This document shows, one piece after another, positions 2,586 through 47,552 of a stretch of 64,000 nucleotides of DNA; positions within the stretch are counted from its first letter, which is position 1, and each line of letters begins with the position of its first letter. A program made the translations under genes and the position numbers. The notes under the pieces are model-generated. The model saw only the letters and a list, made by a program, of their open reading frames with translations, was not told the origin of the DNA and did no database searches. The stretch comes from Lachnospiraceae bacterium (GTDB taxonomy: Bacteria > Bacillota > Clostridia > Lachnospirales > Lachnospiraceae): the NCBI GenBank assembly GCA_017448245.1, contig JAFSLV010000028.1, positions 32,441 through 96,440 of the forward strand, given 5' to 3'.

Positions 2586-4169
2586 TTATTTGTGTGATGT
2601 GACGGCCGTAACCGCCGCTTTTAAGACCAGATTGACCAGCAGAATCATGACGGAGACAAAGGCCGCACTCTCCATGAGCAGCTGCGCCTCAAACTGCGTG
2701 ATCATGAGCGCGACGGGCTTTGGCGAGGGCGGTGCGAGAAACGATACCGCGGAAATCGTCATCATCGAATTGACAAAGAAAAACGCGAACATCTCGAGTA
2801 ACGTCATGCGTACCTTGGGCACAATCACGTCGCAGATGATCCGCAGCCTGGCGATTCCGAGGCTCCTTCCCACTGCTTCGAGATGCTCGTTGACCTTGAC
2901 GAGGGAGTTGTACATCATCAGATAGGGCGAGGCAAAAAAGTGGACCGTGTTGACCATGAGGATGAGCACGACCGTGCCGTAGATGACGCGTCCCGAAAAA
3001 AAGATCACGTAGGAAAGACCGAGAACCAGACCGGGAATCGCCATCGCGGACATCGAAAGCAGATGCAGTGCCCGCGAAAAACGGCTCCTGACGCGTGCGG
3101 TCATATAGGCACACACAAAGGCGACCAGCGTCCCGAGGAGTCCGGTGAGTACCGCATAGAGCAGAGAGTTTTTCAGATACGTGAGCGCGCCCCGGTTGAT
3201 CGTCTTTTCGATGTGATAGAGCGTAAAGGCCGGATTGACCGGATACTTGGTCGCAAAGACCATCAGGCAGAAGGATACGATCGGCGCGATGACAAAGACC
3301 CCGAGCAGGGAGCAAAAGCAAAAAGCGAGCAGATCCCTGCCGCCCTGCTTTTCGGGTATGACGGGTGTTGTCACAAAGGCGCTCTGCGCGTCCTCCGGAT
3401 GCAGCACGTCCACGACAAAGGCGATGACCGCGGGAATCAGAAGCAGTACGCCGATTGCGCTGCCCTGCCCGTAATCGAGCATACCGACCGCACGGTTGTA
3501 CATGAGGACGGAGAGCGTGATCTCCTTTCCGCCGATGAGGAGCGGTACGCCGTAGTCCGTCATGATCATGCTGAAGACCGCAAAGAACACGGAGATCATG
3601 GTCTTTCGCAAAAAGGGCAGCGTGATCGCAAAAAACCTGTCTCTTCCGGAGATCCCGAGCACCTTCGCCGCCTGATACGGCGAAGCGTCCTCGTAGCGCA
3701 GTATTCCCGTAAACATCAACAGCGCCACCGGAAACGCGTACATCACGGAACCCGCGATGATCCCCGCATAACCGTAGATCCCGCTGCGCAGCCCGAGGAG
3801 TCTCGTGACCAGACCGTTGGTGCCAAAGAGCGCGACCAGGCCGAATGCGTGTGAGATCGAGGGGATGAGCATCGGCACGACGAGGAGCATCCGGAAGAAC
3901 GCCTTTCCCTTCATCGCCGTGCGCTCCAGGGCAAACGCCGCCGCCATCGACAGCGCCATCGTCACGACGGTTGCGAGAAAGGAGGTGACGAGCGAATTGA
4001 CAAGTGCCTGTGAAAATTGCGGAGAGGCAGCCAGCGACGAGACTTTTTCCGGCGTGATGCGCGCAAACATGCGCAGAATCGGAAATGCGACACCGGTCAG
4101 AAAAAACAGGGCGATCGAGATCTGTATCACGCGCTGCGCGATATTCTTTTCCCTGCGATATGCGCTCAT
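2586..4169 (-). CDS. ABC transporter permease with two BPD_transp_1 repeats (FbpB/PhnU-like)
   Basis: Hydrophobic, with two EAA-like loops (YQAAKVLG, EAVGRSLG). Confidence 0.88.
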   Translation of the reverse strand: MSAYRREKNIAQRVIQISIALFFLTGVAFPILRMFARITPEKVSSLAASPQFSQALVNSLVTSFLATVVTMALSMAAAFALERTAMKGKAFFRMLLVVPMLIPSISHAFGLVALFGTNGLVTRLLGLRSGIYGYAGIIAGSVMYAFPVALLMFTGILRYEDASPYQAAKVLGISGRDRFFAITLPFLRKTMISVFFAVFSMIMTDYGVPLLIGGKEITLSVLMYNRAVGMLDYGQGSAIGVLLLIPAVIAFVVDVLHPEDAQSAFVTTPVIPEKQGGRDLLAFCFCSLLGVFVIAPIVSFCLMVFATKYPVNPAFTLYHIEKTINRGALTYLKNSLLYAVLTGLLGTLVAFVCAYMTARVRSRFSRALHLLSMSAMAIPGLVLGLSYVIFFSGRVIYGTVVLILMVNTVHFFASPYLMMYNSLVKVNEHLEAVGRSLGIARLRIICDVIVPKVRMTLLEMFAFFFVNSMMTISAVSFLAPPSPKPVALMITQFEAQLLMESAAFVSVMILLVNLVLKAAVTAVTSHK

Positions 4170-4981
4170 GTCGCATCCTTTGCGTAAGGAGCGGCGTGCG
4201 CGATCACTTTTTCAAAGCGCGAGAGCGAATCGATCTTGGCCTTGAGATTGTCGAGCACAAAGGTCTGCACGTATTCGTCCGCCGGATGTGCACAGATCTC
4301 TTCCGGCGTGTCGATCTGCGCGATGCGTCCCTCGTCAAGGATCATGATGCGGTCCGAAAGCGCAAAAGCCTCCTCCTGATCATGCGTGACATAGATCATC
4401 GTGGTGCCGAATCGTTCCTGCAGGCGCTTGAGCTCCGCGCGCATGCTGAGCCTCGTCGCCGCGTCGAGTGCGCTCATCGGCTCGTCAAAGAGCACGATGT
4501 CAGGCTGTAAGGCAAGCGTCCTCGCGATCGCGACACGCTGCTGCTGCCCGCCGGAGAGCCTGGCCGGCATACGCTTCATATACTCCTTTAATCCGACCGC
4601 TTCGAGCATCTGCTGCGCGATGTCGTCCGCCCTGTCCCTGGTTTCCTTTTTTCTGCGCAGGGCATAGGCGACGTTGTCGAACACGTTCATATTTTCAAAG
4701 AGTGCGTAGTTCTGGAAGACGATGCCCATGCCGCGTTTGTCGGGCGGTGCGTGCGTGATGTCCCTGCCGTCCTTTTCGATCGTCCCCGTATCGGGCGCAA
4801 GGAGCCCGATCAGGATGCGCAACAGCGTCGTCTTCCCGCAACCCGAAGGGCCGAGCAGGGACAAGAATTCCCCGTCGGCCACTTCAAAGCTGACCTGCCG
4901 CAGGACACCGTGCGCATCAAACTGTTTGGAGATGTCCCGCGCCTGTAATTTTGTTTTCTTCCCGTTTACGAGAACGTCCAT
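4166..4981 (-). CDS. ABC transporter ATP-binding protein (PotA/FbpC/PhnT-like)
   Basis: GPSGCGKTT, LSGGQQQRVAIAR, LLFDEP-type Walker B (VLFDEP). Confidence 0.95.
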   Translation of the reverse strand: MDVLVNGKKTKLQARDISKQFDAHGVLRQVSFEVADGEFLSLLGPSGCGKTTLLRILIGLLAPDTGTIEKDGRDITHAPPDKRGMGIVFQNYALFENMNVFDNVAYALRRKKETRDRADDIAQQMLEAVGLKEYMKRMPARLSGGQQQRVAIARTLALQPDIVLFDEPMSALDAATRLSMRAELKRLQERFGTTMIYVTHDQEEAFALSDRIMILDEGRIAQIDTPEEICAHPADEYVQTFVLDNLKAKIDSLSRFEKVIAHAAPYAKDAT

Positions 4982-5997
4982 CGGGCAAGGAGTCTTTCTT
5001 TTTCTTCACGCGTGTCTCCGGACATGTCACCGTAGTCGATGTTTTTCGGGAAGCCCTCGACCTCCGGTGCAAAATCCTTGAAGATCTGGTCCGGAAAATA
5101 CATTTCATTGTTCTGTCTGCACAGGTCTGTTGCAAGATATTCGAAAACCTCGCGTACTGCCGGACGGTCCGCACTTTTCGCCATCATCGCGTTGCCGTAC
5201 ATGCTGAAGGGCGAACCTTCCTCAAAGAAGAGAATCTCGAGATCGACTCCCTGTGAGATCTCGACCACCGCCTGGCTCGTCATGCCGAGTCCGATCGCGA
5301 CTTCCCCCTGCACGAGTGCATTGACGGGGCCGGAACCGGAGGAGGTGTACTGGAGGATGTTTTCGGTGAGCTGTTCAAAATACGCAAACGCTTCCTCCTC
5401 TCCCCATTCGTTGACGAGCTGTTTCAAAAACATATATCCCGTGCCGCTCGACGCCGGAGAAGGCATGGAGATCAGGCCTTTGTACTGCGGATCAAGCAGG
5501 TCCTCATAGGACACAGGTACCGGCAGTCCCCTGTCCGCAAGCACCTGCGGATTGATGATGATGCAGCCTCCGTTTTTGACCTCGGGCGTGAATTTATGAT
5601 TGTCCGGCACGATATCATCCAGAAACTGCGAGAAATCAAAATCATCGAGTGTTGCCAGATGATCCTCCATCATGTAAAGATAGCCGTACTCCTCCGAGCA
5701 GATGATATCCACCTGTGCACTGTCGCCTTCCTCGGAGACCTTGGCTGCCATCGAGGAGGAACTCATGTATTCAAGTGTGATGTTATACTCCGGAAACTTC
5801 TCACGCAGGCTGTTCAGATAGGTCTCGTTCTTATAATCCTCACCGCTCGTCCAGATGATGATATCCGTATTTTCTCCGGCGGATGCACTTCCCTGCGACG
5901 CTCCCGCACCGCTGCCTGTGGCACCCTGTGAACAACCCGCCAGCAGTCCCGCCGTCATCAACAGTAAAAGCACACGTGCTATACGATTCTTTTTCAT
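4966..5997 (-). CDS. ABC transporter substrate-binding lipoprotein (Fe3+/phosphonate/polyamine class)
   Basis: Lipobox LLAGC; PSPASSGTGY motif typical of SBP_bac_6/8. Confidence 0.88.
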   Translation of the reverse strand: MKKNRIARVLLLLMTAGLLAGCSQGATGSGAGASQGSASAGENTDIIIWTSGEDYKNETYLNSLREKFPEYNITLEYMSSSSMAAKVSEEGDSAQVDIICSEEYGYLYMMEDHLATLDDFDFSQFLDDIVPDNHKFTPEVKNGGCIIINPQVLADRGLPVPVSYEDLLDPQYKGLISMPSPASSGTGYMFLKQLVNEWGEEEAFAYFEQLTENILQYTSSGSGPVNALVQGEVAIGLGMTSQAVVEISQGVDLEILFFEEGSPFSMYGNAMMAKSADRPAVREVFEYLATDLCRQNNEMYFPDQIFKDFAPEVEGFPKNIDYGDMSGDTREEKERLLARWTFS

Positions 5998-7023: not shown

Positions 7024-7069
7024 ATGTTCAATATGCGTATCATTATACTACGTTTTTGAACATTGTCAA
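7024..7069 (-). promoter_or_regulatory. Sigma-70 promoter TTGACA-N16-TATAAT with overlapping inverted repeat ATGTTCAA-N24-TTGAACAT
   Basis: -35 at 7064-7069, -10 at 7042-7047; repeat arms at 7024-7031 and 7056-7063. Confidence 0.8.
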
Positions 7070-7114: not shown

Positions 7115-9049
7115 CTACAGAACCGCCTCGATCATGACGGGTATTTTTTGCAGTCTGCAGCGATGTGCGAGAACGGAGGCGTCCCCGTAGAAGGCATCGA
7201 TTCCGGACAGGTCCGGCGGCAGGTCTTTTGTTTCAATGATCTCTCCGATATCCGCTTTTTGGAACTGCTCCCTGACGGACGCAAAGGACGCGGCGAGCGC
7301 CCCGTCCATCCTGTCAAGCTCCCGCAGGGCAGGATGCGGCACAAGGAGGACACGGATGCGGTCCGCGTGCGCACGGAAGATGTCGATCGTATCGAGATAT
7401 TTGTCGATAGCCCGTGTGCCGTTTGCCAGAAGAAAGGCAATCGTCAGATGCCACAGCAGTGTTTTCCTGCGGGGCGGCCGCGCATCTTCCGGCTGCCGGT
7501 CCCCGGCTTCCGCATCCGGCTGCTCCTTTGCGGTCGCAAAAAACGCCTCCGGTGTCGTACAGACACAGACCTCCTCCCAGCGCGCACGGGTCTCTTCTCC
7601 CGCAAGCCTTGTCAGCGTATCGATATAGATCCCGCGCATCGTTTCATCGGGCAGAAGGATCCGGTCTGCCTGTGCGGATGCCGGCTGTTCGATCAGGACG
7701 GAGAGCGCAGACAACGCCTTGCCGTCCCCCTCCTCCGGTGTATAGAGATCATGGCAGGGGATACAGACGAGCTGCCCCGCAAGCTGCCTCAGGCGTGATG
7801 ACACAAAAAAGTCCGGCAGCGTCACGGCATTGCAATCCGTATCATACGGATCCTGGATAAAGATCATGTCCGGCCGGTGCGCGCCGAAATCATAGGCTGC
7901 GGCATCGGTCAGCGGGATATCTTCCGAAAAAAGATCCGCCTCTTTGACAATCTGCGGATCGCTCCCGTCCGGTCCGTAGGCGATGTAGGGAGGCACGATC
8001 ACGACGACATGACAGTCTCTGTCCGCGGATGCCTCCCGGTAATACGGTTCCATGGTCTTCCACCAGTCCGCACGAACGGGAAGAAAGACGATTTCTTTTT
8101 TTTCTCCGTCCCTCTTTTCCGGCACGGAACGTACCGGAGGAAGGGGCGCGCCTTTATCCCAGGTATAGCGCCAGGCGTTTTTTCCGGTCGCACGCCGGAA
8201 GGCCTCCTCCTGTACATCATAAACCGGATACTCGTGGATGCCGCCGCTTTTGACGATGCGCATGTAATCGCCGTATTCGGTTTTCAGTACCTCGTCATAC
8301 CGTGCGGGAACGGGCAGACGTACATGTTCAAAGGGCAGATACACGCGGTGCGCATACCATGCCTTGTCATAGCGGTGATTTCTTTTTTCCACCCAGAAGG
8401 GCATGAGCGCCACATGCGTAGCCGTCGCGGAATCACGGGCCGCAAAGAGACGTTCCGTTTCGAGCATCTTGGCCCTGCAGGTTTTTGCGTCGCCCTTTTT
8501 TGCCGCGGCCTCCGCCTCCTTCATCGACCGGTACGCTTTTTGAGCGCGCTCCTCTTCCGCTTCGTTGTCCTCATAGAGTCCGTCCAGAGGAAAGAGGTCG
8601 ACGCCGACCGTAAAGGGACAGCCGTAAAAGGCGGCCAGATGTTCTTCGCTGTAATCGATGACACGCGCATTGGTGATACGCGGCAGATAATTGGTATATT
8701 CTTTTTCTCCGGAAAGATCGAGCACGCAGTAGCCGGACGGCAGCTCTTTTTTGGCGATCTGCAGGAAACGGTTCATGTCATGGCGCATCATCACGATGTC
8801 CAGATCATCATCCCACGGGATATAGCCTCCATGGCGCACGGCGCCGAGCAACGACCCGTTGTCCGCATACCACGGGATGTCGTGCCTTGCGCAGATCGCG
8901 TCGATCTCCGAAAGCACCCGCAGCTGCGCCGCCCAGTATCGCTTCATCATCTCGGAGACGTAGAAGCCCTCGCGCGATTCGGGACAGAAACAGGACGGAT
9001 TCCGGATATCCTTGATCCCGATGTTGTTCTCCTGAGAATCATCTGCCAT
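7115..9049 (-). CDS. licD: LicD-family phosphotransferase with C-terminal GT-B/TagF-like region
   Basis: GSLLGAVRHGGYIPWDDDLD, VDLFPLD, YGDYM motifs; ATG overlaps the ppd stop (TGATG). Confidence 0.9.
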   Translation of the reverse strand: MADDSQENNIGIKDIRNPSCFCPESREGFYVSEMMKRYWAAQLRVLSEIDAICARHDIPWYADNGSLLGAVRHGGYIPWDDDLDIVMMRHDMNRFLQIAKKELPSGYCVLDLSGEKEYTNYLPRITNARVIDYSEEHLAAFYGCPFTVGVDLFPLDGLYEDNEAEEERAQKAYRSMKEAEAAAKKGDAKTCRAKMLETERLFAARDSATATHVALMPFWVEKRNHRYDKAWYAHRVYLPFEHVRLPVPARYDEVLKTEYGDYMRIVKSGGIHEYPVYDVQEEAFRRATGKNAWRYTWDKGAPLPPVRSVPEKRDGEKKEIVFLPVRADWWKTMEPYYREASADRDCHVVVIVPPYIAYGPDGSDPQIVKEADLFSEDIPLTDAAAYDFGAHRPDMIFIQDPYDTDCNAVTLPDFFVSSRLRQLAGQLVCIPCHDLYTPEEGDGKALSALSVLIEQPASAQADRILLPDETMRGIYIDTLTRLAGEETRARWEEVCVCTTPEAFFATAKEQPDAEAGDRQPEDARPPRRKTLLWHLTIAFLLANGTRAIDKYLDTIDIFRAHADRIRVLLVPHPALRELDRMDGALAASFASVREQFQKADIGEIIETKDLPPDLSGIDAFYGDASVLAHRCRLQKIPVMIEAVL

Positions 9050-10161
9050 CAAAGCATCTCCATAAATGCGTGTTTATTCTCCATGGCGCTTGTCTTCGGT
9101 CTTCCGAGATCCGCGCGCGATCCGATGGCACAGCACACCTCTATGAGCGTCAGTGTATGTGCCTCCTTTGCCTTTCTTACGGCATCCGCCAGCGCTTCCT
9201 CGTCCGCGACACGGACGGTCTTCGGATAACCGCAGGCTGCTGCGATCTCCGCAACGGAACGCCCTCCCATCACCGTCGGCTGTCCGCCGACGGATTCATG
9301 TGCTCCGTTATTGATCACGATATGGATGAGATTGTCCGGATGACAGGACGCGATGACAGGCAGCGCACCCAGGTGCATGAGAGCCGCTCCGTCACCGTCG
9401 ATACACCAGAATCTCTTTTCGGGCTTTGCGATCGCAAGTCCCAGTGCGACCGAGGAGCAATGCCCCATTGAGCCGACCGTCAGAAAATCATGCGCGTGCG
9501 TCTGCCCCGCGGCATCCCGGAGCTCATAGACCTCTCTGCCGGCTTTTCCGGTGGTCGCGATCACCGCATCGTCTCCCGTTTCCGCAAGAATCGTGCGGAT
9601 CGCATCCTCCCGCAGCAGCGTATGCGTATTGGTATATCCCACGGCGGCATCGGCACTGAGTGCACCCTTGCGTACGACAAAGGCCGCACTCTTTCCCTTT
9701 TCAAAGAGTGTCCGGAAGCCCGTCATCACCTCCGCTGCCTGCTCTGTCGTTGTTTCCTTGCCGATGACAAAGGACGCGATCTCCATATCCTCCAGGAGCT
9801 TTACGGTCACCTCTCCCTGAAAGATGTGCTGCGGCTCGTCATGGACCCCGGGCTCCCCTCTCCAGCCGACGATAAAAAGCACGGGAATCCCGTAGACGCG
9901 GTCACTGAGGAGCGAGGCCGCGGGATTGATGATATTGCCCTCGCCGGAGTTTTGCATATAGACGACGGGCACCTGCCCCGTCGCCAGATGACAACCCGCC
10001 GCCAGCGCACAGGCATTTCCTTCATTGGCACAGATCACGTGATGCGCGGGATCCGTGCCGTACATCTCATACAGCGTATCACAGAGCGCCTTCAGCTGTG
10101 AATCGGGCACCCCCGCAAAAAAAGACGCACCGCTCAGTTCGATCAGTTCTTTTGCCTGCAT
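9049..10161 (-). CDS. aepY: Phosphonopyruvate decarboxylase
   Basis: FFAGVPDSQLK, RGEPGVHDEPQH, GSMGH, TPP motif DGDGAALM; adjacent to PEP mutase. Confidence 0.95.
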   Translation of the reverse strand: MQAKELIELSGASFFAGVPDSQLKALCDTLYEMYGTDPAHHVICANEGNACALAAGCHLATGQVPVVYMQNSGEGNIINPAASLLSDRVYGIPVLFIVGWRGEPGVHDEPQHIFQGEVTVKLLEDMEIASFVIGKETTTEQAAEVMTGFRTLFEKGKSAAFVVRKGALSADAAVGYTNTHTLLREDAIRTILAETGDDAVIATTGKAGREVYELRDAAGQTHAHDFLTVGSMGHCSSVALGLAIAKPEKRFWCIDGDGAALMHLGALPVIASCHPDNLIHIVINNGAHESVGGQPTVMGGRSVAEIAAACGYPKTVRVADEEALADAVRKAKEAHTLTLIEVCCAIGSRADLGRPKTSAMENKHAFMEML

Positions 10162-10179
10162 ATCCCTACCCCCGTCTGG

Positions 10180-12189
10180 TTATACTTCCTCCGGAATCAG
10201 TGTGATGATCTCCTTGATCGGCATACAGGTCTCGTCACACTCTTTGGCCCGGTGATGCGTAAGAATCGATTTTGCGGCATTTTGCATGGCGGGAAAACCG
10301 GTCCTTGTCAGCTGGTTGGCATAGATGACGACATTGGCACCCCGCTCTTTGAATTCCTCCTCCGTCACGCCGTTAAAGGACGTCGGCACCAGCACCACCG
10401 GTGTCGTCGCATCCTTTTTGCGGAAGCGCTCCAGGAAGACAAAGATCTCCTCCGGATCCTTTTTACGACTGTGGATCATGATCGCGTCCGCACCGGCCGC
10501 GACAAAAGCCTCCGCGCGCGCGAGCGCGTCCTCCATCCCCTGCTCCAGGATCAGGGACTCGATACGCGCACAGATCATAAAGTCTTTGGTCTTTTGCGCA
10601 CGCTTCCCCGCTGCGATCTTTTCCGCAAAGTGTTCGATCGTATCCTGTGTCTGCGCGACCTCCGTGCCGAAGAGCGAGTTTTTCTTTAAGCCCGCCTTGT
10701 CCTCGATGATGATCATCGAGACGCCCATACGCTCGAGGCTGCGCACCGTATAGACAAAATGCTCCGTGAGTCCGCCCGTGTCTCCGTCAAAGATGATCGG
10801 TTTGGTCGTGACCTCGCAGATATCGTCAATCGTGCGGAAACGGCTCGTCATGTCGACCAGCTCGATGTCAGGTTTTCCCTTGGCCGTCGAATCGCACAGA
10901 GAGGAAATCCACATGGCGTCAAACTGTCTGGCGGCACCGTCCTGATAGACCACGGTATTTTCGACGATGAGGCCGGTGATGCCGCTGTGCGCCTCCATGG
11001 CCGTGACGAGTCCCTTCATTTCGATGAGCCTCTTTAAGCGTCCTCTTCTGGCATCCGGCAGCGACAGTTCCGCTCGTGTACGGTTTTGCAGGTCGCGGTA
11101 TTTGGCGTCTCCGTGATACGGATACTCGATGAGACGGCCGCCGTAACTGGCAAGCAGCGATACCACTTCGTCGCGTACCGGCTTTTGGAAGCCGGTGACC
11201 CAGTCATCGCCGTGGACGACGATCGCGGGATGCAGCGCTTCGATATTTTCTTTGTAACTCAGGGAATTCTGCGCTACGACCCGGGCGACGTCACGGATAT
11301 TTTCAAACATGACCTTTCGTTCCTCAAAGGGAACAAGCGGATAACGCTTGTAGGCCGCGACCGCCTCGTCCGTAAGAATCCCGATAACGAGCTTTCCGTA
11401 ACGTGCCCCCCTTCGTATGAGATCGATATGTCCGCCGTGGATGATGTCCGTGGAAAAGACCATGTAGACGATACGGTTTCTGACCTCTTCCGCCCGCTTT
11501 GCGACCTCCTGCAGATCTTCGGCATTGTCGATCTCGCTACAGAGGAGATTTTTTACATCGAGCGCGCGGATCTCACAATCCCCGGATACTTTATTAAAAG
11601 CATCCTCCGCATAACAGCCGCGGTTTCCGTCCTTGCAAAAGGATGTGATCTCGTCGAACCATACTTTTTTGTCTTTTTGTAGCAGCTTATAAAAGGGCTG
11701 CGCGGCCATCGCGTCACGCTCGACATGCACGCCGACCTCCGTGACCCTGCCGTCTTTGATACGCGCTTTAAAATCCTTTTCCGGAAGCGGCAGCGTCGAG
11801 GATACGGTCATCACGCTGTGCCCGGACTGTACCACCAGATCCAGCACCTCGTTTTCAAATACAAGATCTCCGTGCAACAGCAACAGATCGTCGTCCAGAA
11901 ACTCCTTTGCGCATTCGATGGACCAGATATAGTTGGTTTCCCTGTATTCCGCGTTATGCACAAAGGTCACATCGGCATCTGTCCCCAGCGTATCCACATA
12001 TTCCTTTAAGATCTCTTCGAAGGGGCCCGTCGTGATGACGATGTCCCGGATGCCGGCTTCCGTAAGCTGTTTCAGCTGTCTGGAGAGAATCGTCTCTCCG
12101 AAAGAAATCTCCGTCATGCATTTGGGATGCTCGCTCGTCAGTATTCCCATGCGTGTACCCGTACCGCTGTTCAGGATCAATGCCTTCAT
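10180..12189 (-). CDS. aepX: Three-domain fusion: PntC-like NTP transferase, HIGH-type cytidylyltransferase and phosphoenolpyruvate mutase
   Basis: LNSGTGTRMG, DIIHGGH, and PEP mutase motifs EAHSGIT, DGDTGG, EDKAGLKKNS. Start moved to ATG 12189 (ATGA overlap with the upstream stop). Confidence 0.95.
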   Translation of the reverse strand: MKALILNSGTGTRMGILTSEHPKCMTEISFGETILSRQLKQLTEAGIRDIVITTGPFEEILKEYVDTLGTDADVTFVHNAEYRETNYIWSIECAKEFLDDDLLLLHGDLVFENEVLDLVVQSGHSVMTVSSTLPLPEKDFKARIKDGRVTEVGVHVERDAMAAQPFYKLLQKDKKVWFDEITSFCKDGNRGCYAEDAFNKVSGDCEIRALDVKNLLCSEIDNAEDLQEVAKRAEEVRNRIVYMVFSTDIIHGGHIDLIRRGARYGKLVIGILTDEAVAAYKRYPLVPFEERKVMFENIRDVARVVAQNSLSYKENIEALHPAIVVHGDDWVTGFQKPVRDEVVSLLASYGGRLIEYPYHGDAKYRDLQNRTRAELSLPDARRGRLKRLIEMKGLVTAMEAHSGITGLIVENTVVYQDGAARQFDAMWISSLCDSTAKGKPDIELVDMTSRFRTIDDICEVTTKPIIFDGDTGGLTEHFVYTVRSLERMGVSMIIIEDKAGLKKNSLFGTEVAQTQDTIEHFAEKIAAGKRAQKTKDFMICARIESLILEQGMEDALARAEAFVAAGADAIMIHSRKKDPEEIFVFLERFRKKDATTPVVLVPTSFNGVTEEEFKERGANVVIYANQLTRTGFPAMQNAAKSILTHHRAKECDETCMPIKEIITLIPEEV

Positions 12190-13472
12190 ATGCCTGCCTC
12201 CTTCATCATGTGCCGCACCGCCTGCGGACAGGTATAACACTCCCGTACCCTGCGGTGACCCGCCTGTGCGATTTTCTTTCTCTCGTCTTCATGTGACAGA
12301 TAGTACGCCGCCTTTTCCATCATCTCATCAAAGGAGGAAAATGTCACGAGTTCTTTTCCGTCCGTAAAGAGCTCCCGGATCTCCGGCTGCGCGTCGGTGA
12401 GCGCAAATCCTCCCGCCCCGAGGATATCAAAAACGCGCAACGAAACACCCGACTCGATCGAGGGGGGCGTCAGATGGAGATTGATCTTTGAGGCACGGAA
12501 TACCAGGGGCATCTCCTCTTCGTAGCTGACGGCGCCGCGGATGTCGAGCGACGCCGGAAGCATCTTTTTTGCTTCTTCGGGATATGTCGTATAGAGACGA
12601 ATGCTTTGATCTCCTTCCGGTGCGGCAAGCGCAGAGAGCGCGGTGAGCGCACGGATCCTCTCCCTGTGCGCGCATTCCTGCGCGAGCGTCGCCGTCACCA
12701 TCAGATACTCCCAGTCCTCTTCCGCATAGAGTTCCTTGTGTTCCGTGCTGAAGTGTGCGCGCATCCCGTTGTATGTCTCTCTCGAAAGCATTTCATAGAC
12801 CGAACCTCCCTCTCCCCGGTGCCCGATGGCCCTGTCCAGCAGATCGTCACATTCTTTTTTGGCTTCCGGGGCGAGTTTTGCAAAAAAGGCATCCCGCGCG
12901 GGATTCTCGTAGAGATTGCCGACAAAGGAGATATCCGCACGATAAGGTGAGAGGTCTTTTGCCATCATCTCCGGCATGGATACGCGCGTGACATTTGTTG
13001 CGAGCGGCCGGTAAAAGACATGGGGGATTCCCCGCGCCCGCATCCTTGCGAGCTGCTCTTTGTCAAAGACAAAGACCCGGTTCGTGTCGTACAGCGCTTC
13101 CTTCAGATAGAGTCCGCGTTGCGGCGCGTCATGCACCCAGGACAGATAGGTATGCGCAGTACGATGACAGGCTTCCGCAACCACGGCGGAAAAGTCCCTG
13201 GTGATGACAAGAAGCTCTCCCTTCCGGTCTGCATGCGGCACCTGTGGGCCGCCCGGCAGGATCTCTTCCTCTGTGCGCAGAATCTCCGCAAGCACCGCCG
13301 AAAGATCCTCCTCCGTGTACTCCGCGTCCGGCACGCGCAGCTCCGCTATACGCACATCCTCATAGCCGGATTCGAGAAAACCCCAGATCATATCGGCATC
13401 GGTGATTTCTGCCTGTTCAAAATAAAGAACGGTCAGGGGCTTTATGCGATATGCCTTTTTCTTTTGCTTCAT
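12186..13472 (-). CDS. CgeB/DUF3880-type glycosyltransferase (Glyco_trans_1_2)
   Basis: SWVHDAP, ISFVGNLY, SKINL, RVFDILGAGGFALT, IAQAG motifs. Confidence 0.85.
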   Translation of the reverse strand: MKQKKKAYRIKPLTVLYFEQAEITDADMIWGFLESGYEDVRIAELRVPDAEYTEEDLSAVLAEILRTEEEILPGGPQVPHADRKGELLVITRDFSAVVAEACHRTAHTYLSWVHDAPQRGLYLKEALYDTNRVFVFDKEQLARMRARGIPHVFYRPLATNVTRVSMPEMMAKDLSPYRADISFVGNLYENPARDAFFAKLAPEAKKECDDLLDRAIGHRGEGGSVYEMLSRETYNGMRAHFSTEHKELYAEEDWEYLMVTATLAQECAHRERIRALTALSALAAPEGDQSIRLYTTYPEEAKKMLPASLDIRGAVSYEEEMPLVFRASKINLHLTPPSIESGVSLRVFDILGAGGFALTDAQPEIRELFTDGKELVTFSSFDEMMEKAAYYLSHEDERKKIAQAGHRRVRECYTCPQAVRHMMKEAGI

Positions 13473-13476
13473 CCTC

Positions 13477-14646
13477 TCATCCCTCCACGCCGGCGGTCTC
13501 AAACATCACCGCGATCCGGTCCTCATAACGAAAGTCCTGTTGCATGCGGGCGAGTCCCGCACGGGCAATCCGTTCTCTCTCCCCGTCATGCGCGAGATAA
13601 TAGGCCGCCTTTTCCACGGCATCCGGGATCGATTCATAAAGCACGCATTCTTCTCCCGGAACGAGATATTCCTGCAGCTCCGGCTGATAATTGGAGAGCA
13701 GAAATCCTCTGCAGCCCATGATATCGAGCGCGCGCAGAGGGATCCCGGAGCGGATGCAGCGCAGCGTCGCGTTGAGATTGATCTTACTCGTCTTAAAGAG
13801 ACGGGGCATTTCCCGGATATAATCGAGCCGGCCGTGGATGCGCACCTGCGGAAGGAGTCTGAGCTCCGTTTCGGACATCTTTTCCTTGTCCGTGCACAGC
13901 ATCACGTCATGCCGTGCGGATAACAGTTTCAGGAGAGACAGCCGGTCCCGGTGTGTGATGTGCGTCGCGATCGAATAGGAGAGCTGCTTGTCCGTGATCT
14001 GCATGGCCTTATCGGACAGCTCCTTATAATGCGCGTTGATCCTGTCGATCAGTTCGCGTGTCAGCATATCGTCCACGAGCCACGCGCCGTAGAGGTCAGA
14101 CTGCGCTTTCACGATCGCATCGATATATCCTCTGTCATAGTCCGTCATTTTGGAAGTCAGAACGGGCAGCGTCGATGCGTAGAGGACGCCCAGCATCGAG
14201 ACGTCACAGGAGAGCGCGGGATCCTTTTGCACGGAGGCGAGACGGTCGCAGTTGACGGCAAGCGGCAGATGGTAGACATTGTCTATCCCCGCCCTTTTAT
14301 GCTCGAGATACTGCTCCCTGTCAAAAAAGAATACGGCATTGGCCGGATGGTCATATCCGTCATACGTCTCCAGATTGAGCGGCGAGTCGCAGCACCAGGC
14401 AATGTATCGGACGTTGTGTGCCGTGCAGCATTTGCCGATCACGGGAAAGAAATTGCTCGACAGTACAACATCATAATCGCCTTCCTTCCATTCCCGTTCA
14501 AAGAGCGCTTCGAAAGCCTCGTTATGATACACGTCCTGCTCGCGAAAGCTGTAATAGACATTGCGGCAGTGATGCCCCATGCGCTCGAGCACGAGCACCC
14601 AGTCGGGCTGGAAATAGGAACCGATGTCAAAGAGGAGGATATTCAT
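13477..14646 (-). CDS. CgeB/DUF3880-type glycosyltransferase
   Basis: AWCCDSP, HLPLAVN, SKINLNATLRCIRSGIPLRALDIMGC. Confidence 0.88.
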   Translation of the reverse strand: MNILLFDIGSYFQPDWVLVLERMGHHCRNVYYSFREQDVYHNEAFEALFEREWKEGDYDVVLSSNFFPVIGKCCTAHNVRYIAWCCDSPLNLETYDGYDHPANAVFFFDREQYLEHKRAGIDNVYHLPLAVNCDRLASVQKDPALSCDVSMLGVLYASTLPVLTSKMTDYDRGYIDAIVKAQSDLYGAWLVDDMLTRELIDRINAHYKELSDKAMQITDKQLSYSIATHITHRDRLSLLKLLSARHDVMLCTDKEKMSETELRLLPQVRIHGRLDYIREMPRLFKTSKINLNATLRCIRSGIPLRALDIMGCRGFLLSNYQPELQEYLVPGEECVLYESIPDAVEKAAYYLAHDGERERIARAGLARMQQDFRYEDRIAVMFETAGVEG

Positions 14647-14691: not shown

Positions 14692-15132
14692 TTACCTGTC
14701 GTTCTCCCGCATCTGTCTGCGGTCCGCTTCCGGGATTTTCCGCATCACATACGGATTGTCCCGGTAGTCCCGGATCCGTACGGTCTGCATCCGGATATCC
14801 TTAAGCTCCGCAAGCATCCTGTCCCGCTCCTGCTGACTGACGGCGCGCTGCTGCCCTGCCTGCACGCAGTTATTGATGCCGTAGGAATACATCTGCAGGA
14901 TTTCATATTCCACGGCATCGCGGATGCCTTCGTATCCGGGCAGATCATGCACGCGGTCATAGACCGCACGCATCGCCTGCGTGATATTGGTATGATAGGA
15001 AAAGGGATTACCCTCCTTTTTGGAGGCAGAGCCCTCCCGGTTATTATGTGTCTAGTGTACGAGATTGCCAAGCAGTGCGGCAAGCGTTTCCTGCGCGTTA
15101 TGAACGGGAACAATGATGCTGACTTTTTTCAT
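14692..15132 (-). pseudogene. Internally deleted GT2 remnant
   Basis: MKKVSIIVPVHNAQETLAALLGNLVH* (15052-15132) resembles the N-terminus, and YRDNPYVM..RRQM resembles the C-terminus, of GT2 1532-2521. The catalytic core is missing. Confidence 0.75.
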
Positions 15133-15135
15133 AAC

Positions 15136-15828
15136 TCAGAGATGAAACCACTCCTTTTCATAGTTCTCCAGTAGTATTTTACGATACTCATTATAGTTCC
15201 ACATACTCAGAAGCTTACCGTCGTCATGCAGACACCAGGGCGCTGTTTGCAGCGGCACCACGACACGATATCCGCGCCTGCGCATTTCAAAACACTGCGA
15301 CACGTCATAAAAATCAAATCCGTCAAACAGATCTTCTCTCCAGGGCACATCCGCGGATGTCGCCAGCAAAAAGCCGTCGGCACTGACCATGTCTTCCACG
15401 GATATCCTGTCCGATACGGGTTCTTCTTCATAAGGATCGTCAGAAGGCTGCAGATTCATGCCCACGGACTGTCCCGCCCACATGATGCCTGTTTCATCGA
15501 GCTCTTTTGTGCCCACCATCCCGACGAGGCCGATCTGCGCATCGCTTGCAAATATCGCCAGCAGATGATGCAAAAACCAGCGGTTCATGATATATACATC
15601 CTGATGCAGATAGATCCGGTACGGAACATCTGATGTGCGTACGTCATCGCCCGGTTTCATGCGGATCGCGCGATTATATCCTTCGCACATACTCTTCGCG
15701 TCCGTGATCGTCGTAATCTCGACATCATAACCTTCCGGTACATACAGACGGCTGATATAAAACGCACACTCCCTTGCCATTCGTTCCCGGTTGACGCACA
15801 TGATAAAATGAAACGTCTGACGGTTCAT
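15136..15828 (-). CDS. StrF-like (Glyco_tranf_2_5) glycosyltransferase-family protein
   Basis: DAKSMCEGYN, YLHQDV, IGLVGMVG, FDGFDFYDVSQCFE. Confidence 0.85.
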   Translation of the reverse strand: MNRQTFHFIMCVNRERMARECAFYISRLYVPEGYDVEITTITDAKSMCEGYNRAIRMKPGDDVRTSDVPYRIYLHQDVYIMNRWFLHHLLAIFASDAQIGLVGMVGTKELDETGIMWAGQSVGMNLQPSDDPYEEEPVSDRISVEDMVSADGFLLATSADVPWREDLFDGFDFYDVSQCFEMRRRGYRVVVPLQTAPWCLHDDGKLLSMWNYNEYRKILLENYEKEWFHL

Positions 15829-16430
15829 CCCGCACCTCTTCCGATCAGCGCACCGAGTTTTTCCTTCAATGCCAGTGTCCCCGCGCTTGCCTCCTCGATT
15901 ACGGACAGATAATCATACGCCGTCCGGTACTGTCTGCCGGTAAGCGCATCCTCCGCAAGGCGCAATAAGATCTGCTCCCTGTGGCCGAGATAGGATGTCG
16001 GATGATACAGCACGGCATGTACTGCATATGGAGAGATCTGCTGCGCGCGTAAAAAACCCGTCGCTTCCTCCGCGCCCGGCGTGATACCAAGCTCAATACG
16101 GCGCAGATACAGGTCGCAAGCTATATATCTGTCCATCAATTCGTCATAAGATGACACACCGCGGATAAACAGCGGATACCCGGCAGCCTCTTCCTTCTGC
16201 ACGGCATCCATCAGATAATACAACCTCAGGGGTTCACAGTTATCCGCTAAGATCCTCTTGCCGTCCGGAGAATCAAATAATTTTGAAACCAGAAGAAACG
16301 CATACATATCTTCCGCATCCAGCGCCATGTCCACAGCCTCCTTCATATGCTCAAGAAACTGCAGATCACTGTCCCGCCTGCGGTCGATTTTCTCCAGTTG
16401 TTCCAGGTATCCCACAGCGATATCATTCAT
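15825..16430 (-). CDS. Hypothetical all-helical protein, paralog of 39023-39637
   Basis: Shared LRRIEL, ISPY.V.AVLY and GHRE..LLR.AEDA motifs; ATGA overlap with the downstream GT. Confidence 0.75.
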   Translation of the reverse strand: MNDIAVGYLEQLEKIDRRRDSDLQFLEHMKEAVDMALDAEDMYAFLLVSKLFDSPDGKRILADNCEPLRLYYLMDAVQKEEAAGYPLFIRGVSSYDELMDRYIACDLYLRRIELGITPGAEEATGFLRAQQISPYAVHAVLYHPTSYLGHREQILLRLAEDALTGRQYRTAYDYLSVIEEASAGTLALKEKLGALIGRGAG

Positions 16431-16470: not shown

Positions 16471-17403
16471 TCAATGATCCCTTTGGTCGTCCATTCTCAT
16501 TACGGCATAGCGGCAATAATCCCTGGCATACCGGTACTGTTCCTCGCCGTACGCACCGTATTCTATCCCGTGTTTTTCTTTATATCCCGTCCAGTTACTC
16601 CATAACAGACCGGCGGCCGCAATATAGCAATAGATCTTGACTCTGGTCGTTTTGTCACATCCTCCTTCGTCTTCAAAATACAGATCGATCAGATGATCCG
16701 CCTGCTCTTTGCTGTAATTGCTGTATACCGCAAACATCGCAATATCGAGATGCGGATCCTGCATACCGGCATACTCCCAGTCTGTCAGATGTATGATTCC
16801 TTCGGCCCCGGCATCGAGAATCAGAAAATTATCGGGCACCGCGTCGATATGTGACAGAACCCGTTCCCTTTTGCAACCGTCCACGTAACGCTTTAACTCC
16901 ATAACATGGTCTTTTGTCTCTTCATAATCCGGAAACCGTTCTTTATGCCCCGCGCACAAGGACTCATAGCGAAGGATCTCTCCGTATAAGTCAAATGAAT
17001 GTCTTACCTCCAGCCGCATACGGTGAAGGGATTTCAATTTATCCATGCAGGCGCGGATTTCCGTCTCATTATACGGGTCACAGCATCTCGCGTTTTCATA
17101 AAACCGGGTAATCTTATAACCGTTTTCCGCATCAATATACACCGGATCGTCACACAGGCCGTATCCTTTGATCGCATGATGAACTTCGACTTCCTGATGT
17201 CTGTTGATGAGTTCCTGTGTTCCTTCGCCCGGCAGGCGGAACAGATACCTTTCATCCCGGAAGCCAAACACATACGAATGATTGGTCATACCTCCCTTGA
17301 TCAGCTGCAGATCCCGGATTTCTGTTTTGCCACACTGCAGGATACCCGACAGGATACGGATACATTCATCCGTTTTTATTCTATTGCTACGCACTTCATT
17401 CAT
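16471..17403 (-). CDS. licA: Choline/ethanolamine kinase (LicA-like)
   Basis: GGMTNHSY, RLPGEGT, SHIDAVPDNFL, LTDWEYAGMQD. Confidence 0.88.
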   Translation of the reverse strand: MNEVRSNRIKTDECIRILSGILQCGKTEIRDLQLIKGGMTNHSYVFGFRDERYLFRLPGEGTQELINRHQEVEVHHAIKGYGLCDDPVYIDAENGYKITRFYENARCCDPYNETEIRACMDKLKSLHRMRLEVRHSFDLYGEILRYESLCAGHKERFPDYEETKDHVMELKRYVDGCKRERVLSHIDAVPDNFLILDAGAEGIIHLTDWEYAGMQDPHLDIAMFAVYSNYSKEQADHLIDLYFEDEGGCDKTTRVKIYCYIAAAGLLWSNWTGYKEKHGIEYGAYGEEQYRYARDYCRYAVMRMDDQRDH

Positions 17404-18124
17404 TGCTTTCCGCCCGGATTCCTTTTTGTTCCTTATTGTTCTGATCAAACATCCTCAGCTCTTCCGGCGTATCAAACTCACTGATCACGCTTTTGTCATA
17501 CCTTCTGATCCGCATTTTTAAAACATCCAGATGCTCCGCAAAGATACTCTCCCACAGCTTATCCTTCGTCTGAGGCAGATCATATTCCCGTTCCAGTATT
17601 TTCAAAAATGTTCGGCTGAAGTCTTTCGACCAAAAGGTATGTCCAAGCATATACCATGCATCATAACCACCGATTGTTACGGAATAGACATATCCTTCCT
17701 CATCCTCTTCCATACACCACTCCCCGGTGGCACCGTCCGCATGAATCGCGGAATAATAAGACTCACTCACGCAGCGTTCAAACGGATTGACGGTAAAGTA
17801 ATTATCCGATGAGCACACATAACTGTTTCCAAGAATCTCCCGCGCAACCCATATGGAAGAGTGATTATTGCGCACTTCCCATTCCGGATTATGAATCAGA
17901 TGTACCTGCTCCCATTTTTTCTCCAGATACGCAAACTGTTCCGACCGGTATCCTGTCGTAATATAGATAGCAGGCACCCCCGCCTCCAGGAGTTGTCGGA
18001 TCTGGCGCTCGATCAGCACCTCCCCTCCGACGACAAACAGTCCTTTTGGCTTGTCATCAGAAAGCTGTCCCATCCTTTTTGATCTGCCTGCGGCAAGAAT
18101 GAGGGCATTGTCTGCTTCGATCAT
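17396..18124 (-). CDS. licC: CTP:phosphocholine cytidylyltransferase (LicC-like)
   Basis: ALILAAGRSKRM, KPKGL, RNNHSS, SEFDT. Confidence 0.88.
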   Translation of the reverse strand: MIEADNALILAAGRSKRMGQLSDDKPKGLFVVGGEVLIERQIRQLLEAGVPAIYITTGYRSEQFAYLEKKWEQVHLIHNPEWEVRNNHSSIWVAREILGNSYVCSSDNYFTVNPFERCVSESYYSAIHADGATGEWCMEEDEEGYVYSVTIGGYDAWYMLGHTFWSKDFSRTFLKILEREYDLPQTKDKLWESIFAEHLDVLKMRIRRYDKSVISEFDTPEELRMFDQNNKEQKGIRAESNE

Positions 18125-18127
18125 TTT

Positions 18128-19582
18128 TCACTCATCTCCAAGCATCGATATCATGTCACGATAGATTGTCTCACCTGCCGTACATCCATGTATGGATACA
18201 TAGTCCAGTTCCTCTTCAAACACCTTTTTCCGGATTTCTTCCTTTGTGTCATTTCCACCTATAACTACATTTCGCAAGAATTCTTCGATTGTAGCATAAT
18301 CCGTACCAGGTGACTGATAATAAGCTGTCATCAGTTTTTCGCCAAGAAAGCTAAACGCCTGCCCGTCCCTGGTCAGAAACAACAACGGTTTATTTACATA
18401 AAGATACTCTCCAATAAAGGATCCGCTATCCATAATCATTGCATCTGAGGTGGCAAAGATATCCAGATAGTTTTCCTCTGTTACAACTTTCGCGTTTGGC
18501 AATCTATCCCATTGAGCCACATAAGCATCATATTCTTCATAACTTCTAAACAGTCCTGTTTTCACAGCACTCATTCTGACATTTGGGTGGGGCTTAAAAA
18601 TAAATGAGATTTCATCGCAGTACTTCTGTGCGAGATATAATAAAAAGAATGCATTATTCATAAATGTGCTGAATCGTATAATGTGTTCCGGTGACATAGA
18701 ATGATGTGGTGCAATGATAACCCTTTTCATCTTTGTAGTAGGAATAATACTCGGCAACTTCCAAATATCCCTGATTCTTGACTCCGGAAACTCATGTTTT
18801 TCATAAAAGTAATCCATTTTAGGAAACCCGCTGTATCTTACATTGCTCCCCTTCAACAAGTTAAAGTCTTGAAACCCTTTTTTGTGGCTTTCTGACTCCA
18901 TATATATACGATGCATGATGTTAAAAACTGCTTTTGTGTACACCGCCTCTCTTAAATATGTCCTTTCCTTATTATCCGGAAGATACATGCAATAGGGTAT
19001 ATATATCTGCAAACAATGCAAGGGTAACTTCATAATGTCCATCGAATCCGGTATTTCCTCAACATATGCATTCAGGTTAAAAACAATATCCGGTAAAAAC
19101 CCCACATCGTCCCACCCGATCGATTTGTCAGACGGCTCATCGTAAACATCTATTAGCTGATATCCACGAGCCGAGAAATAATCATACGAGTCTTTATAGG
19201 ATTTTCTTCTTGCCTCGTACGACCTCATCATGGCCGGCATTACTATAATTCCGACATCGAACCGCTCGTCTTCCAGCATTTTTCTATATACACTCTCTGC
19301 CTGCCATTCTGCCGCAGAATACGCCCAAAACAGAACTTTGATTTTTTCCTCCCCGCTTACTTTTCTTCTCAAGTTTGCGATTGCGCACCGCTCTGCGATG
19401 TGGTGCATCTTTCTATACAGTTCGACACCTCCGTCTAGCATCCTCGCTGCAAAACATAACGCAAACAGATGCTCATATGTATAATCATCCGGAATCCGTT
19501 CCACGTCATCAAAATGCCCCTGATCCACGCCGTTAATAATCTGTTCCACATACTCCGGAAATTTTTCAATGTTCATTCCCAT
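18128..19582 (-). CDS. CDP-glycerol glycerophosphotransferase (TagF/TagB-like) family protein
   Basis: SGFPKMD, IIAPHHS, FKPHP, SDAMIMDSGSFIGEYLYVNKPLLFL. Confidence 0.82.
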   Translation of the reverse strand: MGMNIEKFPEYVEQIINGVDQGHFDDVERIPDDYTYEHLFALCFAARMLDGGVELYRKMHHIAERCAIANLRRKVSGEEKIKVLFWAYSAAEWQAESVYRKMLEDERFDVGIIVMPAMMRSYEARRKSYKDSYDYFSARGYQLIDVYDEPSDKSIGWDDVGFLPDIVFNLNAYVEEIPDSMDIMKLPLHCLQIYIPYCMYLPDNKERTYLREAVYTKAVFNIMHRIYMESESHKKGFQDFNLLKGSNVRYSGFPKMDYFYEKHEFPESRIRDIWKLPSIIPTTKMKRVIIAPHHSMSPEHIIRFSTFMNNAFFLLYLAQKYCDEISFIFKPHPNVRMSAVKTGLFRSYEEYDAYVAQWDRLPNAKVVTEENYLDIFATSDAMIMDSGSFIGEYLYVNKPLLFLTRDGQAFSFLGEKLMTAYYQSPGTDYATIEEFLRNVVIGGNDTKEEIRKKVFEEELDYVSIHGCTAGETIYRDMISMLGDE

Positions 19583-24507: not shown

Positions 24508-24536
24508 ACCAATACCGATACTTCCTCCTGTACATG

Positions 24537-24571
24537 ATTATACTTTGTATTATAATAATTTCAAGTATAAT
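24537..24571 (-). promoter_or_regulatory. Sigma-70 promoter (TTGAAA...TATAAT) for the ATPase, bracketed by 9-bp inverted repeat ATTATACTT/AAGTATAAT
   Basis: Arms at 24537-24545 and 24563-24571; internal palindrome TATTATAATA at 24548-24557. Confidence 0.65.
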
Positions 24572-24575
24572 GCGT

Positions 24576-25687: not shown

Positions 25688-25787
25688 CTGCCGATCCGCC
25701 GTAATCTGAAGATAAAGATACAACTACACCATCTGTTCAATTCTATCAAATATGCGACTTCTATACAAGATAAACGCTATATATCAT

Positions 25788-27827: not shown

Positions 27828-27908
27828 CGGGAAGCCTTTCATTTCCGTACACTTCTGTGCTACAATTATGATACCATTTTTCCATTGCCGTGTAAAAAGG
27901 GAGCCCTT

Positions 27909-47484: not shown

Positions 47485-47552
47485 GGTTTTTTCCTCCTTG
47501 AATGTGGCGCGCACAGCATCCATGCTGTGGCATACTTTGATTTACACTAATT

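Follow-up and report, generated by a model that had tools for sequence, protein, structure and literature searches.

What is a phosphonate-forming operon doing in a glycan gene island that ends at flagellin genes? This question is raised by a 64,000-nt stretch of DNA from an uncultured gut Lachnospiraceae bacterium (GCA_017448245.1, contig JAFSLV010000028.1, positions 32,441-96,440 of the forward strand), all of which we refer to as the window. Five tightly packed minus-strand genes at 7115-14646 encode two CgeB-type glycosyltransferases (GTs), a triple fusion that ends in phosphoenolpyruvate (PEP) mutase, phosphonopyruvate decarboxylase (Ppd) and a LicD phosphotransferase. We propose, as a reading with about an even chance of being right, that this is a Pnt-type phosphonyl-tailoring operon recruited into a flagellin O-glycosylation island. 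The flagella of the source bacterium probably carry a phosphonate-decorated sugar coat, in which we infer flagellin to be the acceptor.

A probable phosphonyl-tailoring operon coupled to glycosyltransferase genes

We delimited the operon from translations of open reading frames (ORFs) and Pfam matches (Table 1). An earlier reading, made from the sequence only, had described the two CgeB-type GTs, the fusion, Ppd and LicD as contiguous, and the coordinates and Pfam and NCBIfam assignments agree with it. Both of the translational overlaps that it named are in the sequence: the stop codon of the second CgeB gene overlaps the start of the fusion gene (ATGA), and that of the Ppd gene overlaps the start of LicD (TGATG). 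The spacers are 4 nt between the two CgeB genes and 18 nt between the fusion and Ppd. The gene order is identical in three independent metagenome assemblies, as are the boundaries of the second CgeB gene. Both the fusion and Ppd are full-length, with intact motifs, and are identical or near-identical across the three.

The fusion protein consists of a PntC/LicC-like nucleotidyltransferase domain (amino acids ~1-235), a Fom1-type cytidylyltransferase domain (~237-359) and a PEP mutase (Ppm) domain (~385-668). The Ppm domain scored 395.7 bits on the NCBIfam equivalog TIGR02320, passing its cut-off of 319.55, and matched the Ppm structures 5UNC and 1M1B of the Protein Data Bank (PDB) with E about 1e-38. 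It contains EDKAGLKKNS, an instance of the Ppm-specific motif EDKxxxxxNS (PMC6697681). Ppd also passed its equivalog cut-off (TIGR03297; 448.7 bits against 312.5). The middle domain matched the structure of the Fom1 cytidylyltransferase (CyTase) domain (5X3D, E 2.9e-36), and the N-terminal domain gave weak matches to LicC (1JYK) and PntC (6PD1). Published work recognises phosphonyl tailoring by nucleotidyl activation together with LicD-type neighbours, and triple fusions of PF12804, PF01467 and Ppm have been inventoried before, in 42 proteins (PMC6697681). The operon has the hallmarks of a Pnt cluster, with Ppm joined to PF12804 and PF01467 in one protein, the LicD gene overlapping that for Ppd, and a pair of GT genes upstream. 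The order of events read from the sequence, namely formation of a carbon-phosphorus (C-P) bond, nucleotidyl activation and LicD-type transfer, fits the published logic of such systems (PMC6697681).

The Fom1-like CyTase-Ppm architecture is also known from fosfomycin biosynthesis (PMC6697681), and the operon product could in principle be a diffusible small-molecule phosphonate, a natural product. We consider this very improbable. The operon comes without the tailoring enzymes typical of phosphonate antibiotics, its pathway genes are flanked by and translationally coupled to GT and LicD genes, and a cytidylyltransferase-fused Ppm with LicD neighbours is a published signature of surface tailoring (PMC6697681).

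The LicD protein that completes the operon has two domains. The Pfam LicD match covers amino acids 54-261. For the C-terminal 350 residues, a sequence search against the PDB gave no match, and only a fold search gave matches. The AlphaFold2 (AF2) model of this part (pLDDT 88) has a two-Rossmann, GT-B-like architecture, and Foldseek matched it to GT-B enzymes with probability 1.0 and low TM scores, which we attribute to the modelled orientation of the two halves relative to each other; the assignment as a GT-B fold rests on the Foldseek probability and the secondary-structure pattern. Unannotated GT-B-like domains of ~200-350 amino acids end three LicD proteins and one Glyco_tranf_2_5 protein of the island, and LicD proteins of 640-780 amino acids that carry such an extension occur commonly in Lachnospiraceae, Butyrivibrio included.

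Flagellin as the proposed acceptor

The transferase families of the operon recur beside flagellin genes. We examined 79 loci from Lachnospiraceae, Butyrivibrio, Acetatifactor and Kineothrix whose flagellins are 64-78% identical to those of the window. A CgeB-type transferase lies within 10 kb of fliC in 54 of them (median distance 480 bp; 27 within 500 bp) and LicD in 32 (median 747 bp; 16 within 500 bp; up to four tandem copies), as does Glyco_tranf_2_5 (32 loci; median 2037 bp). The pattern is clear in L086 (LicC-LicDx4-fliC-CgeB-GT-GT2) and L087, and L084 is a further example. A single-protein search with the operon CgeB gene returned four distant loci only, yet was informative. The sequence-only reading had pointed to a GT family shared with the core flagellar cluster, and this was borne out: the CgeB/DUF3880 protein encoded there shares 30-32% identity with the two copies of the operon (32% with that of the first gene). 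The operon LicD is 37% identical to the LicD encoded at 42080-44026, one gene from the flagellins. No CgeB gene was found in ordinary triple-fusion loci (0 of 80 from genomes and 0 of 80 from metagenomes), in which the fusion is 68-74% identical to the operon copy; no closer fusion turned up, the upper limit being 74% identity in GTDB species genomes and 72% in metagenome contigs. The operon thus joins a transferase type of flagellin loci to a phosphonate cassette through translational coupling.

PEP-mutase cassettes also stand directly beside flagellin genes elsewhere. We classed the links in four loci as strong. The order fusion-alcohol dehydrogenase (ADH)-Ppd is followed immediately by a flagellin gene in L035 and in the metagenome contig L205. 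The cultured isolate Kineothrix sp. MSJ-39 (L252/L144; NZ_JAHLPN010000028.1) carries fliC-CgeB-fliC-methyltransferase-[CTP_transf_like+PEP_mutase]-LicD-LicD-metallophosphoesterase-SDR-DUF6564, with the PEP mutase motif EDKTGLKKNS, and L298 carries fliC-LicD-LicD-...-CT-PepM-Ppd-...-LicD-LicC, CT denoting cytidylyltransferase. A moderate link is found in L037, in which fliC, a gene for a 752-amino-acid protein and one for an APS-kinase-like protein precede the fusion. Two further candidates, L285 and L288, were classed as weak links because a RecQ helicase and an ATPase gene lie between Ppd and fliC in L285. Overall, PEP mutase and flagellin genes are close in 7 of 240 loci, against an expectation of 0.5-2.5% for an arbitrary locus to have flagellin within 10 kb, which is a rough estimate rather than a whole-genome null. 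This count is not striking, and the weight lies in the tight, co-directional, interleaved arrangements. As to the synteny of pepM with fliC across Lachnospiraceae, which the sequence-only reading had put forward as a check, adjacency does recur in several genomes, whereas most relatives of the cassette lie in polymer loci.

A subset of the CT-PepM loci has what we call a type II cassette, which comprises metallophosphoesterase, an SDR epimerase/dehydratase-like protein, DUF6564, a saccharopine-dehydrogenase-like protein, CT-PepM and Ppd, and lacks both a 2-aminoethylphosphonate (AEP) transaminase (AEPT) and an iron-dependent ADH (Fe-ADH). Such cassettes are present in ~22 of 80 loci, and the four that are linked to flagellin are all four of the CT-PepM flagellin cases (Kineothrix sp. 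MSJ-39, L285, L288 and L298).

Within the window, the glycan island abuts fliC1 at one end (45210/45273) and purC at the other. The two flagellins, of 274 amino acids each when counted from the conserved start, are 94.5% identical to each other and have a Ser/Thr-rich central segment. All ~27 glycan enzymes encoded between 1532 and 45210, including the product of the first CgeB gene, are without transmembrane segments in a hydropathy scan. Searches of the window and 10 kb on each side found no Wzx, Wzy, Bac_transf or other initiating phosphoglycosyl transferase, exporter, polymerase or ligase. The sole transporter of the island includes a solute-binding protein, which marks it as an importer.

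Several observations weigh against flagellin as the acceptor. The operon lies ~31 kb from the flagellin genes, and the island does not run unbroken to them, as had been stated: the intervening genes are glycan genes, but with strand switches, a low-GC block, a three-gene insert and a GT2 pseudogene remnant. The low-GC block (16-26 kb; 41-48% GC versus about 55% elsewhere) lies between the operon and fliC and looks like a later acquisition; it holds a kinase/LicC-like/TagF-like module, two paralogous GT2 genes for proteins of 580-620 amino acids (51% identical) and the defence-like insert. This candidate defence insert interrupts the island with three non-glycan genes, one for an ATPase_2/DUF234 ATPase matching PDC-S27 (166 bits) and two paralogues matching PDC-M03A. 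The left flank (L088, 10 kb left of the window), into which the island continues, encodes a GDP-sugar pathway (Gmd, a hexapeptide acetyltransferase, an epimerase/reductase, ManC, two DegT aminotransferases and GlmS) as well as a membrane Glucos_trans_II (GtrII-type) protein and a GT2, followed by purC. A membrane GtrII-type transferase in this far-left flank cannot act on flagellin, and the island is a mosaic. YfhO lies beyond the flagellar genes; judged by these two proteins, part of the region serves extracytoplasmic glycosylation. The best orthologue of the operon LicD after a 98% strain variant is only 52% identical; its island is syntenic (LicDx5 ... LicD-GT2-Gmd ... purC) but has no pepM or Ppd, nor the CgeB pair or the importer. 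A run search found the operon sequence in DNA runs only, all from gut metagenomes, and in no RNA run. No sigma-D-like motif lies near the operon, and the only minus-strand matches of the window precede flagellar genes, although this search carries no information on glycosylation genes.

These points raise the alternative that the operon site is a general surface-glycan region and that the phosphonate is placed on another glycoconjugate, such as a cell-wall polysaccharide, a teichoic-acid-like precursor or a spore-surface (crust-type) glycan made in the mother-cell cytoplasm. We regard this as rather unlikely. Most relatives of the fusion-Ppd cassette do lie in cell-wall-polymer loci, with Wzx-like flippases, membrane TagF-like enzymes, GT2 and LicD, and in the Butyrivibrio-type locus L092 a long LicD and CgeB stand with WecG and Bac_transf and without flagellar genes. 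The membrane GtrII-type and YfhO glycosyltransferases that flank the island point the same way. CgeB is named for a spore-crust protein of Bacillus subtilis, and sets of all-soluble enzymes also mark spore-surface glycosylation. Against these stand the lack of an initiating transferase, flippase, polymerase, exporter and ligase in ~75 kb, the association of CgeB with flagellin in this clade, including the copy inside the fliD-csrA cluster, and the recurrent adjacency of PEP mutase and fliC genes. For the phosphonate-bearing flagellin O-glycan proposed from the sequence, the link of CgeB and LicD to flagellin in relatives holds up, and the distance, the polymer-locus relatives and the incomplete pathway described below speak against it.

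Possible de novo synthesis and salvage of the phosphonate

The remaining counter-evidence concerns the pathway itself. PepM and Ppd had been said to make C-P compounds; the enzymes are present, but their product cannot simply be read off, since neither AEPT nor a reductase is encoded in the window and its 10-kb flanks. Of the early branch points catalogued in PMC8942020, we found no post-Ppd enzyme (AEPT of the Aminotran_5 family, PhpC-type Fe-ADH, PhnY or RhiG) in the operon neighbourhood. No Pfam match to AEPT or phosphonoacetaldehyde reductase was obtained among the larger ORFs of the 64-kb window and 10 kb at each end, and tblastn with representatives from related loci found neither AEPT nor Fe-ADH in the window or L081/L088. 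In the relatives of the fusion, the conserved core is fusion, Fe-ADH and Ppd, with Fe-ADH between the other two in at least 137 of 160 loci (68 of 80 from genomes, 69 of 80 from metagenomes). The early phosphonate pathway is incomplete in cis, so that either phosphonoacetaldehyde would be handled by an enzyme encoded elsewhere or salvage through the importer would be the working supply. With their Fom1-like middle domain and Fe-ADH core, the relatives look like producers of cytidine monophosphate (CMP)-2-hydroxyethylphosphonate (HEP). For the operon, the Fom1-like domain leans towards HEP, and the company kept by a further cytidylyltransferase of the window (AEP transaminase clusters and an AEP-type importer) leans towards AEP.

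This further cytidylyltransferase shows that the phosphonate system reaches left past 7115, to a winged helix-turn-helix (wHTH)-cytidylyltransferase gene and a PhnS2T2U2-like importer. The wHTH protein matches LicC of Streptococcus pneumoniae (1JYK) over its full length (E 6e-25) and is, judged by its neighbours in other genomes, probably a phosphonate (AEP) cytidylyltransferase that possibly doubles as a regulator. Other Clostridia have orthologues of it (65-75% identity) beside AEPT-CT-PepM-Ppd, in 12 loci or more, and in L012 the wHTH gene and the same ABC trio lie directly upstream of a triple fusion; this genomic context marks it as a phosphonate-cluster cytidylyltransferase that travels with the importer. 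In five of the Clostridia loci (L260, L262, L275, L326 and L327) an APC-family amino-acid permease follows instead of the ABC importer. The pairing of enzyme and importer is thus conserved while the transporter type varies. The best NCBIfam matches of all three importer components (2586-5997) are putative AEP transporter families, each below its equivalog cut-off (Table 1), and the ABC importer is accordingly named here as a relative of the PhnS2T2U2 family with a putative phosphonate substrate. Together, the wHTH-cytidylyltransferase and the importer suggest phosphonate salvage. An attempt to sort the three LicC-like modules into PntC and LicC types by sequence was dropped; the published determinants are steric, and the PntC of Atopobium rimae resembles LicC.

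If the de novo branch had decayed or become non-functional after loss of the reductase, salvage would be the only supply, from the importer through the wHTH-cytidylyltransferase to a LicD. We consider this improbable. The Fe-ADH that is nearly universal among relatives is missing, the wHTH gene and importer have their own perfect match to a predicted sigma-70-type promoter, and Clostridioides difficile bears AEP on flagellin without pepM (PMC8861647). The GT2 pseudogene at the operon border is a further sign of decay; it aligns in one frame to amino acids 5-35 and 241-325 of the GT2 encoded at 1532-2521, with an in-frame stop and ~200 codons missing. The fusion and Ppd, by contrast, are full-length and well above the equivalog cut-offs, with intact motifs and identical or near-identical copies in three assemblies, and the missing step could be supplied by a reductase or transaminase encoded elsewhere in the genome. 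At its opposite end, past the importer, the 12-kb block carries the intact GT2 of this family; together with the remnant, it may be a trace of the way in which the block was inserted.

In the flagellin reading, which we prefer, the PEP mutase domain would convert PEP to phosphonopyruvate and Ppd would convert this to phosphonoacetaldehyde, as judged by equivalog-level homology. An enzyme encoded elsewhere would turn the aldehyde into AEP (transaminase) or HEP (reductase), and in parallel the importer may bring in preformed phosphonate, which is presumed to be abundant in gut and rumen. CMP-phosphonate would be made by one of three modules: either of the two nucleotidyltransferase domains of the fusion (PntC-like or Fom1-like) or the wHTH-LicC/PntC protein. 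The LicD domain of the LicD/GT-B enzyme would then move the phosphonyl group to a hydroxyl of a sugar in an O-glycan built by the two CgeB-type transferases, possibly with the GT-B domain. From its context, this O-glycan would be attached to Ser/Thr of the flagellin central segment in the cytoplasm, before export. The kinase/LicC-like/TagF-like module may add a second, phosphodiester-linked substituent, in parallel to the model for CD0242/CD0244 (PMC10714395).

Table 1. Features of the window, with coordinates counted from its first nucleotide
Feature	Coordinates	Strand	Basis and remarks
CgeB/DUF3880-type glycosyltransferase (CgeB/YkvP type), first gene of the operon	13477-14646	-	Pfam Glyco_trans_1_2 + DUF3880
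Second CgeB/DUF3880-type glycosyltransferase	12186-13472	-	Pfam Glyco_trans_1_2 + DUF3880
Triple fusion	10180-12189	-	Pfam NTP_transf_3/NTP_transferase + CTP_transf_like + PEP_mutase
Phosphonopyruvate decarboxylase (Ppd)	9049-10161	-	Pfam TPP_enzyme_N/C; NCBIfam
Two-domain LicD: N-terminal LicD phosphotransferase, C-terminal ~350-aa GT-B-fold domain	7115-9049	-	Pfam; AF2/Foldseek
Sigma-70-type promoter match TTGACA-16-TATAAT, between the LicD and wHTH-cytidylyltransferase genes	7042-7069	-	12/12 consensus positions; consensus match only, predicted
Winged-HTH + LicC/PntC-type nucleotidyltransferase, 300 aa	6060-6962	-	Pfam MarR_2/HTH_24 + NTP_transferase
PhnS2-like binding protein	4966-5997	-	Best NCBIfam match, 160.6 bits, below cut-off of 392.75
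PhnT2-like ATPase	4166-4981	-	Best NCBIfam match, 323.2 bits, below cut-off of 457.7
PhnU2-like fused permease	2586-4169	-	Best NCBIfam match, 348 bits, below cut-off of 593.25
GT2 pseudogene remnant, upstream border of the operon	14692-15130	-	Alignment to GT2 at 1532-2521
Phospho-substituent module: choline-kinase-family kinase, LicC-like nucleotidyltransferase, TagF-like (Glyphos_transf) transferase	16471-19582	-	Pfam; low GC
Candidate defence insert, three non-glycan genes	23119-26858	-	PADLOC candidate families
Carriers of the GT-B-like extension	7118-8167 (-), 27426-29348 (+), 39634-41079 (+), 42080-44026 (+)		Unannotated domain of ~200-350 aa
Two short flagellin genes	45273-46097 and 46660-47523	-	Pfam Flagellin_N/C; proposed acceptors
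Sigma-D/FliA-like motifs TAAA-N15-17-CCGATA, upstream of fliC1, fliC2 and the flaG-fliD unit	46294-46319, 47554-47579, 50892-50917	-	
CgeB/DUF3880 glycosyltransferase in the core late-flagellar cluster, between flaG/fliD and csrA/fliW	50995-52182	-	

Other features of the region include a duplicated gene pair, at 15136-16430 (minus strand) and 39023-41079 (plus strand), each consisting of a gene for a ~200-amino-acid protein followed by one for a Glyco_tranf_2_5 protein. The ~200-amino-acid proteins are 44% identical and have no family match, and the Glyco_tranf_2_5 proteins are 57% identical. A minus-strand gene at 34075-37857 encodes a 1260-amino-acid multidomain protein (DUF6492, GT2 and an FkbH/HAD-IIIC phosphatase-like domain). 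The late-flagellar cluster at 53072-59218 (minus strand) contains two FlgK-like genes (570 and 670 amino acids) and encodes an unusually long FlgL-like protein (741 amino acids) that matches Flagellin_N only.

Known phosphonate systems and phosphonylated flagellin

The closest known systems are the Pnt clusters of Treponema denticola (Tde1415) and Atopobium rimae (Ari1348, PntC) and the aepXYZ genes for polysaccharide B of Bacteroides fragilis (PMC6697681, PMC8942020). They share with the operon a nucleotidyltransferase-fused Ppm, an adjacent Ppd and, nearby, a LicD-like phosphotransferase and GTs, and the logic that we propose for the operon, in which a CMP-phosphonate is made and then moved onto a glycan, is theirs. 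Unlike them, the operon lacks a cis-encoded AEP transaminase, shows coupling to CgeB/DUF3880 transferases and lies in a flagellin-bounded island without export machinery, with an extra wHTH-cytidylyltransferase and ABC importer. Fom1 of Streptomyces wedmorensis, a CyTase-Ppm protein that cytidylylates HEP, has a CyTase domain like the middle domain of the fusion. The relatives of the fusion carry a PhpC/FomC-type Fe-ADH that would make HEP, as on the Fom1 route, whereas the window has no ADH; the operon also differs from the Fom1 system in its additional N-terminal PntC-like domain and in having no fosfomycin tailoring genes. The route from Ppm through Ppd and Fe-ADH to a HEP-decorated glycan, as predicted for the fusion relatives, is found for the HEP exopolysaccharides of Stackebrandtia nassauensis and Glycomyces cited in PMC8942020; these differ in belonging to Actinobacteria, in their exported polysaccharide and in having no flagellar link.

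The acceptor itself has a precedent in C. difficile. The sequence-only reading knew of no characterised phosphonate-modified flagellin, which is outdated: AEP on the type A glycan of C. difficile FliC was shown by mass spectrometry in 2022, and according to its authors the source of this AEP in an organism without pepM is not known (PMC8861647). A phospho-substituent is transferred onto the flagellin GlcNAc of C. difficile from a cytidine diphosphate (CDP)-activated form (PMC10714395). The type A system (cd0240-cd0244) resembles the island in its short Clostridia flagellin and cytoplasmic O-glycosylation, in a phospho-linked substituent installed by a LicC-like cytidylyltransferase and a CDP-dependent transferase, and in AEP on the flagellin glycan (PMC8861647, PMC10714395). 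It uses a TagF-like enzyme, not LicD, for the phospho-substituent, whereas the island of the operon encodes C-P-forming enzymes. The module at 16471-19582 comprises the enzyme classes proposed for CD0242/CD0244 (PMC10714395), a likeness at the level of enzyme class. In the lic locus of S. pneumoniae and Haemophilus (LicA, LicB, LicC and LicD), an imported compound is likewise activated with CTP and then transferred to a glycan by LicD, and the wHTH protein of the window resembles LicC along its whole length; phosphonates, however, need no kinase, the importer of the window is PhnS2T2U2-like and not a LicB permease, and the acceptor is probably a protein-linked glycan.

In a wider view, which we offer tentatively and place a little below an even chance, PEP-mutase cassettes would have entered the flagellin loci of Lachnospiraceae repeatedly, serving to place C-P-bonded substituents on flagellin O-glycans, in at least two architectures (triple fusion with Fe-ADH and Ppd, and CT-PepM type II). 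The window would be a third variant, in which the reductase was lost, CgeB and LicD-GT-B genes are coupled to the cassette, and a wHTH-cytidylyltransferase and AEP-type importer combine de novo with salvage supply.

The modification itself is not new, because AEP on C. difficile flagellin has been published (PMC8861647). In the literature available to us, where we looked for pepM or phosphonate in connection with flagellin or glycosylation of flagella, and for LicD in connection with flagellin, we met no account of a flagellin locus that contains a PEP-mutase cluster, and the new part appears to be a genetically encoded phosphonate route linked to flagellin genes. If the wider view above is true, phosphonylated flagellin would have its first genetic basis, and there would be a possible explanation of where flagellin-bound AEP, as in pepM-less C. 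difficile, originates in the gut, a question that would become testable. If confirmed, it would add a new acceptor class to phosphonate biochemistry, the glycan of a secreted protein, for which the gene set is defined, and cultured Kineothrix sp. MSJ-39 (fliC-CgeB-fliC-pepM-LicD-LicD) would be a tractable test organism. Among the bacterial antigens that the gut immune system meets, the flagellins of Lachnospiraceae belong to the dominant ones. Chemistry on the exposed central segment of flagellin could alter antibody and innate recognition, phage adsorption and the properties of the filament.

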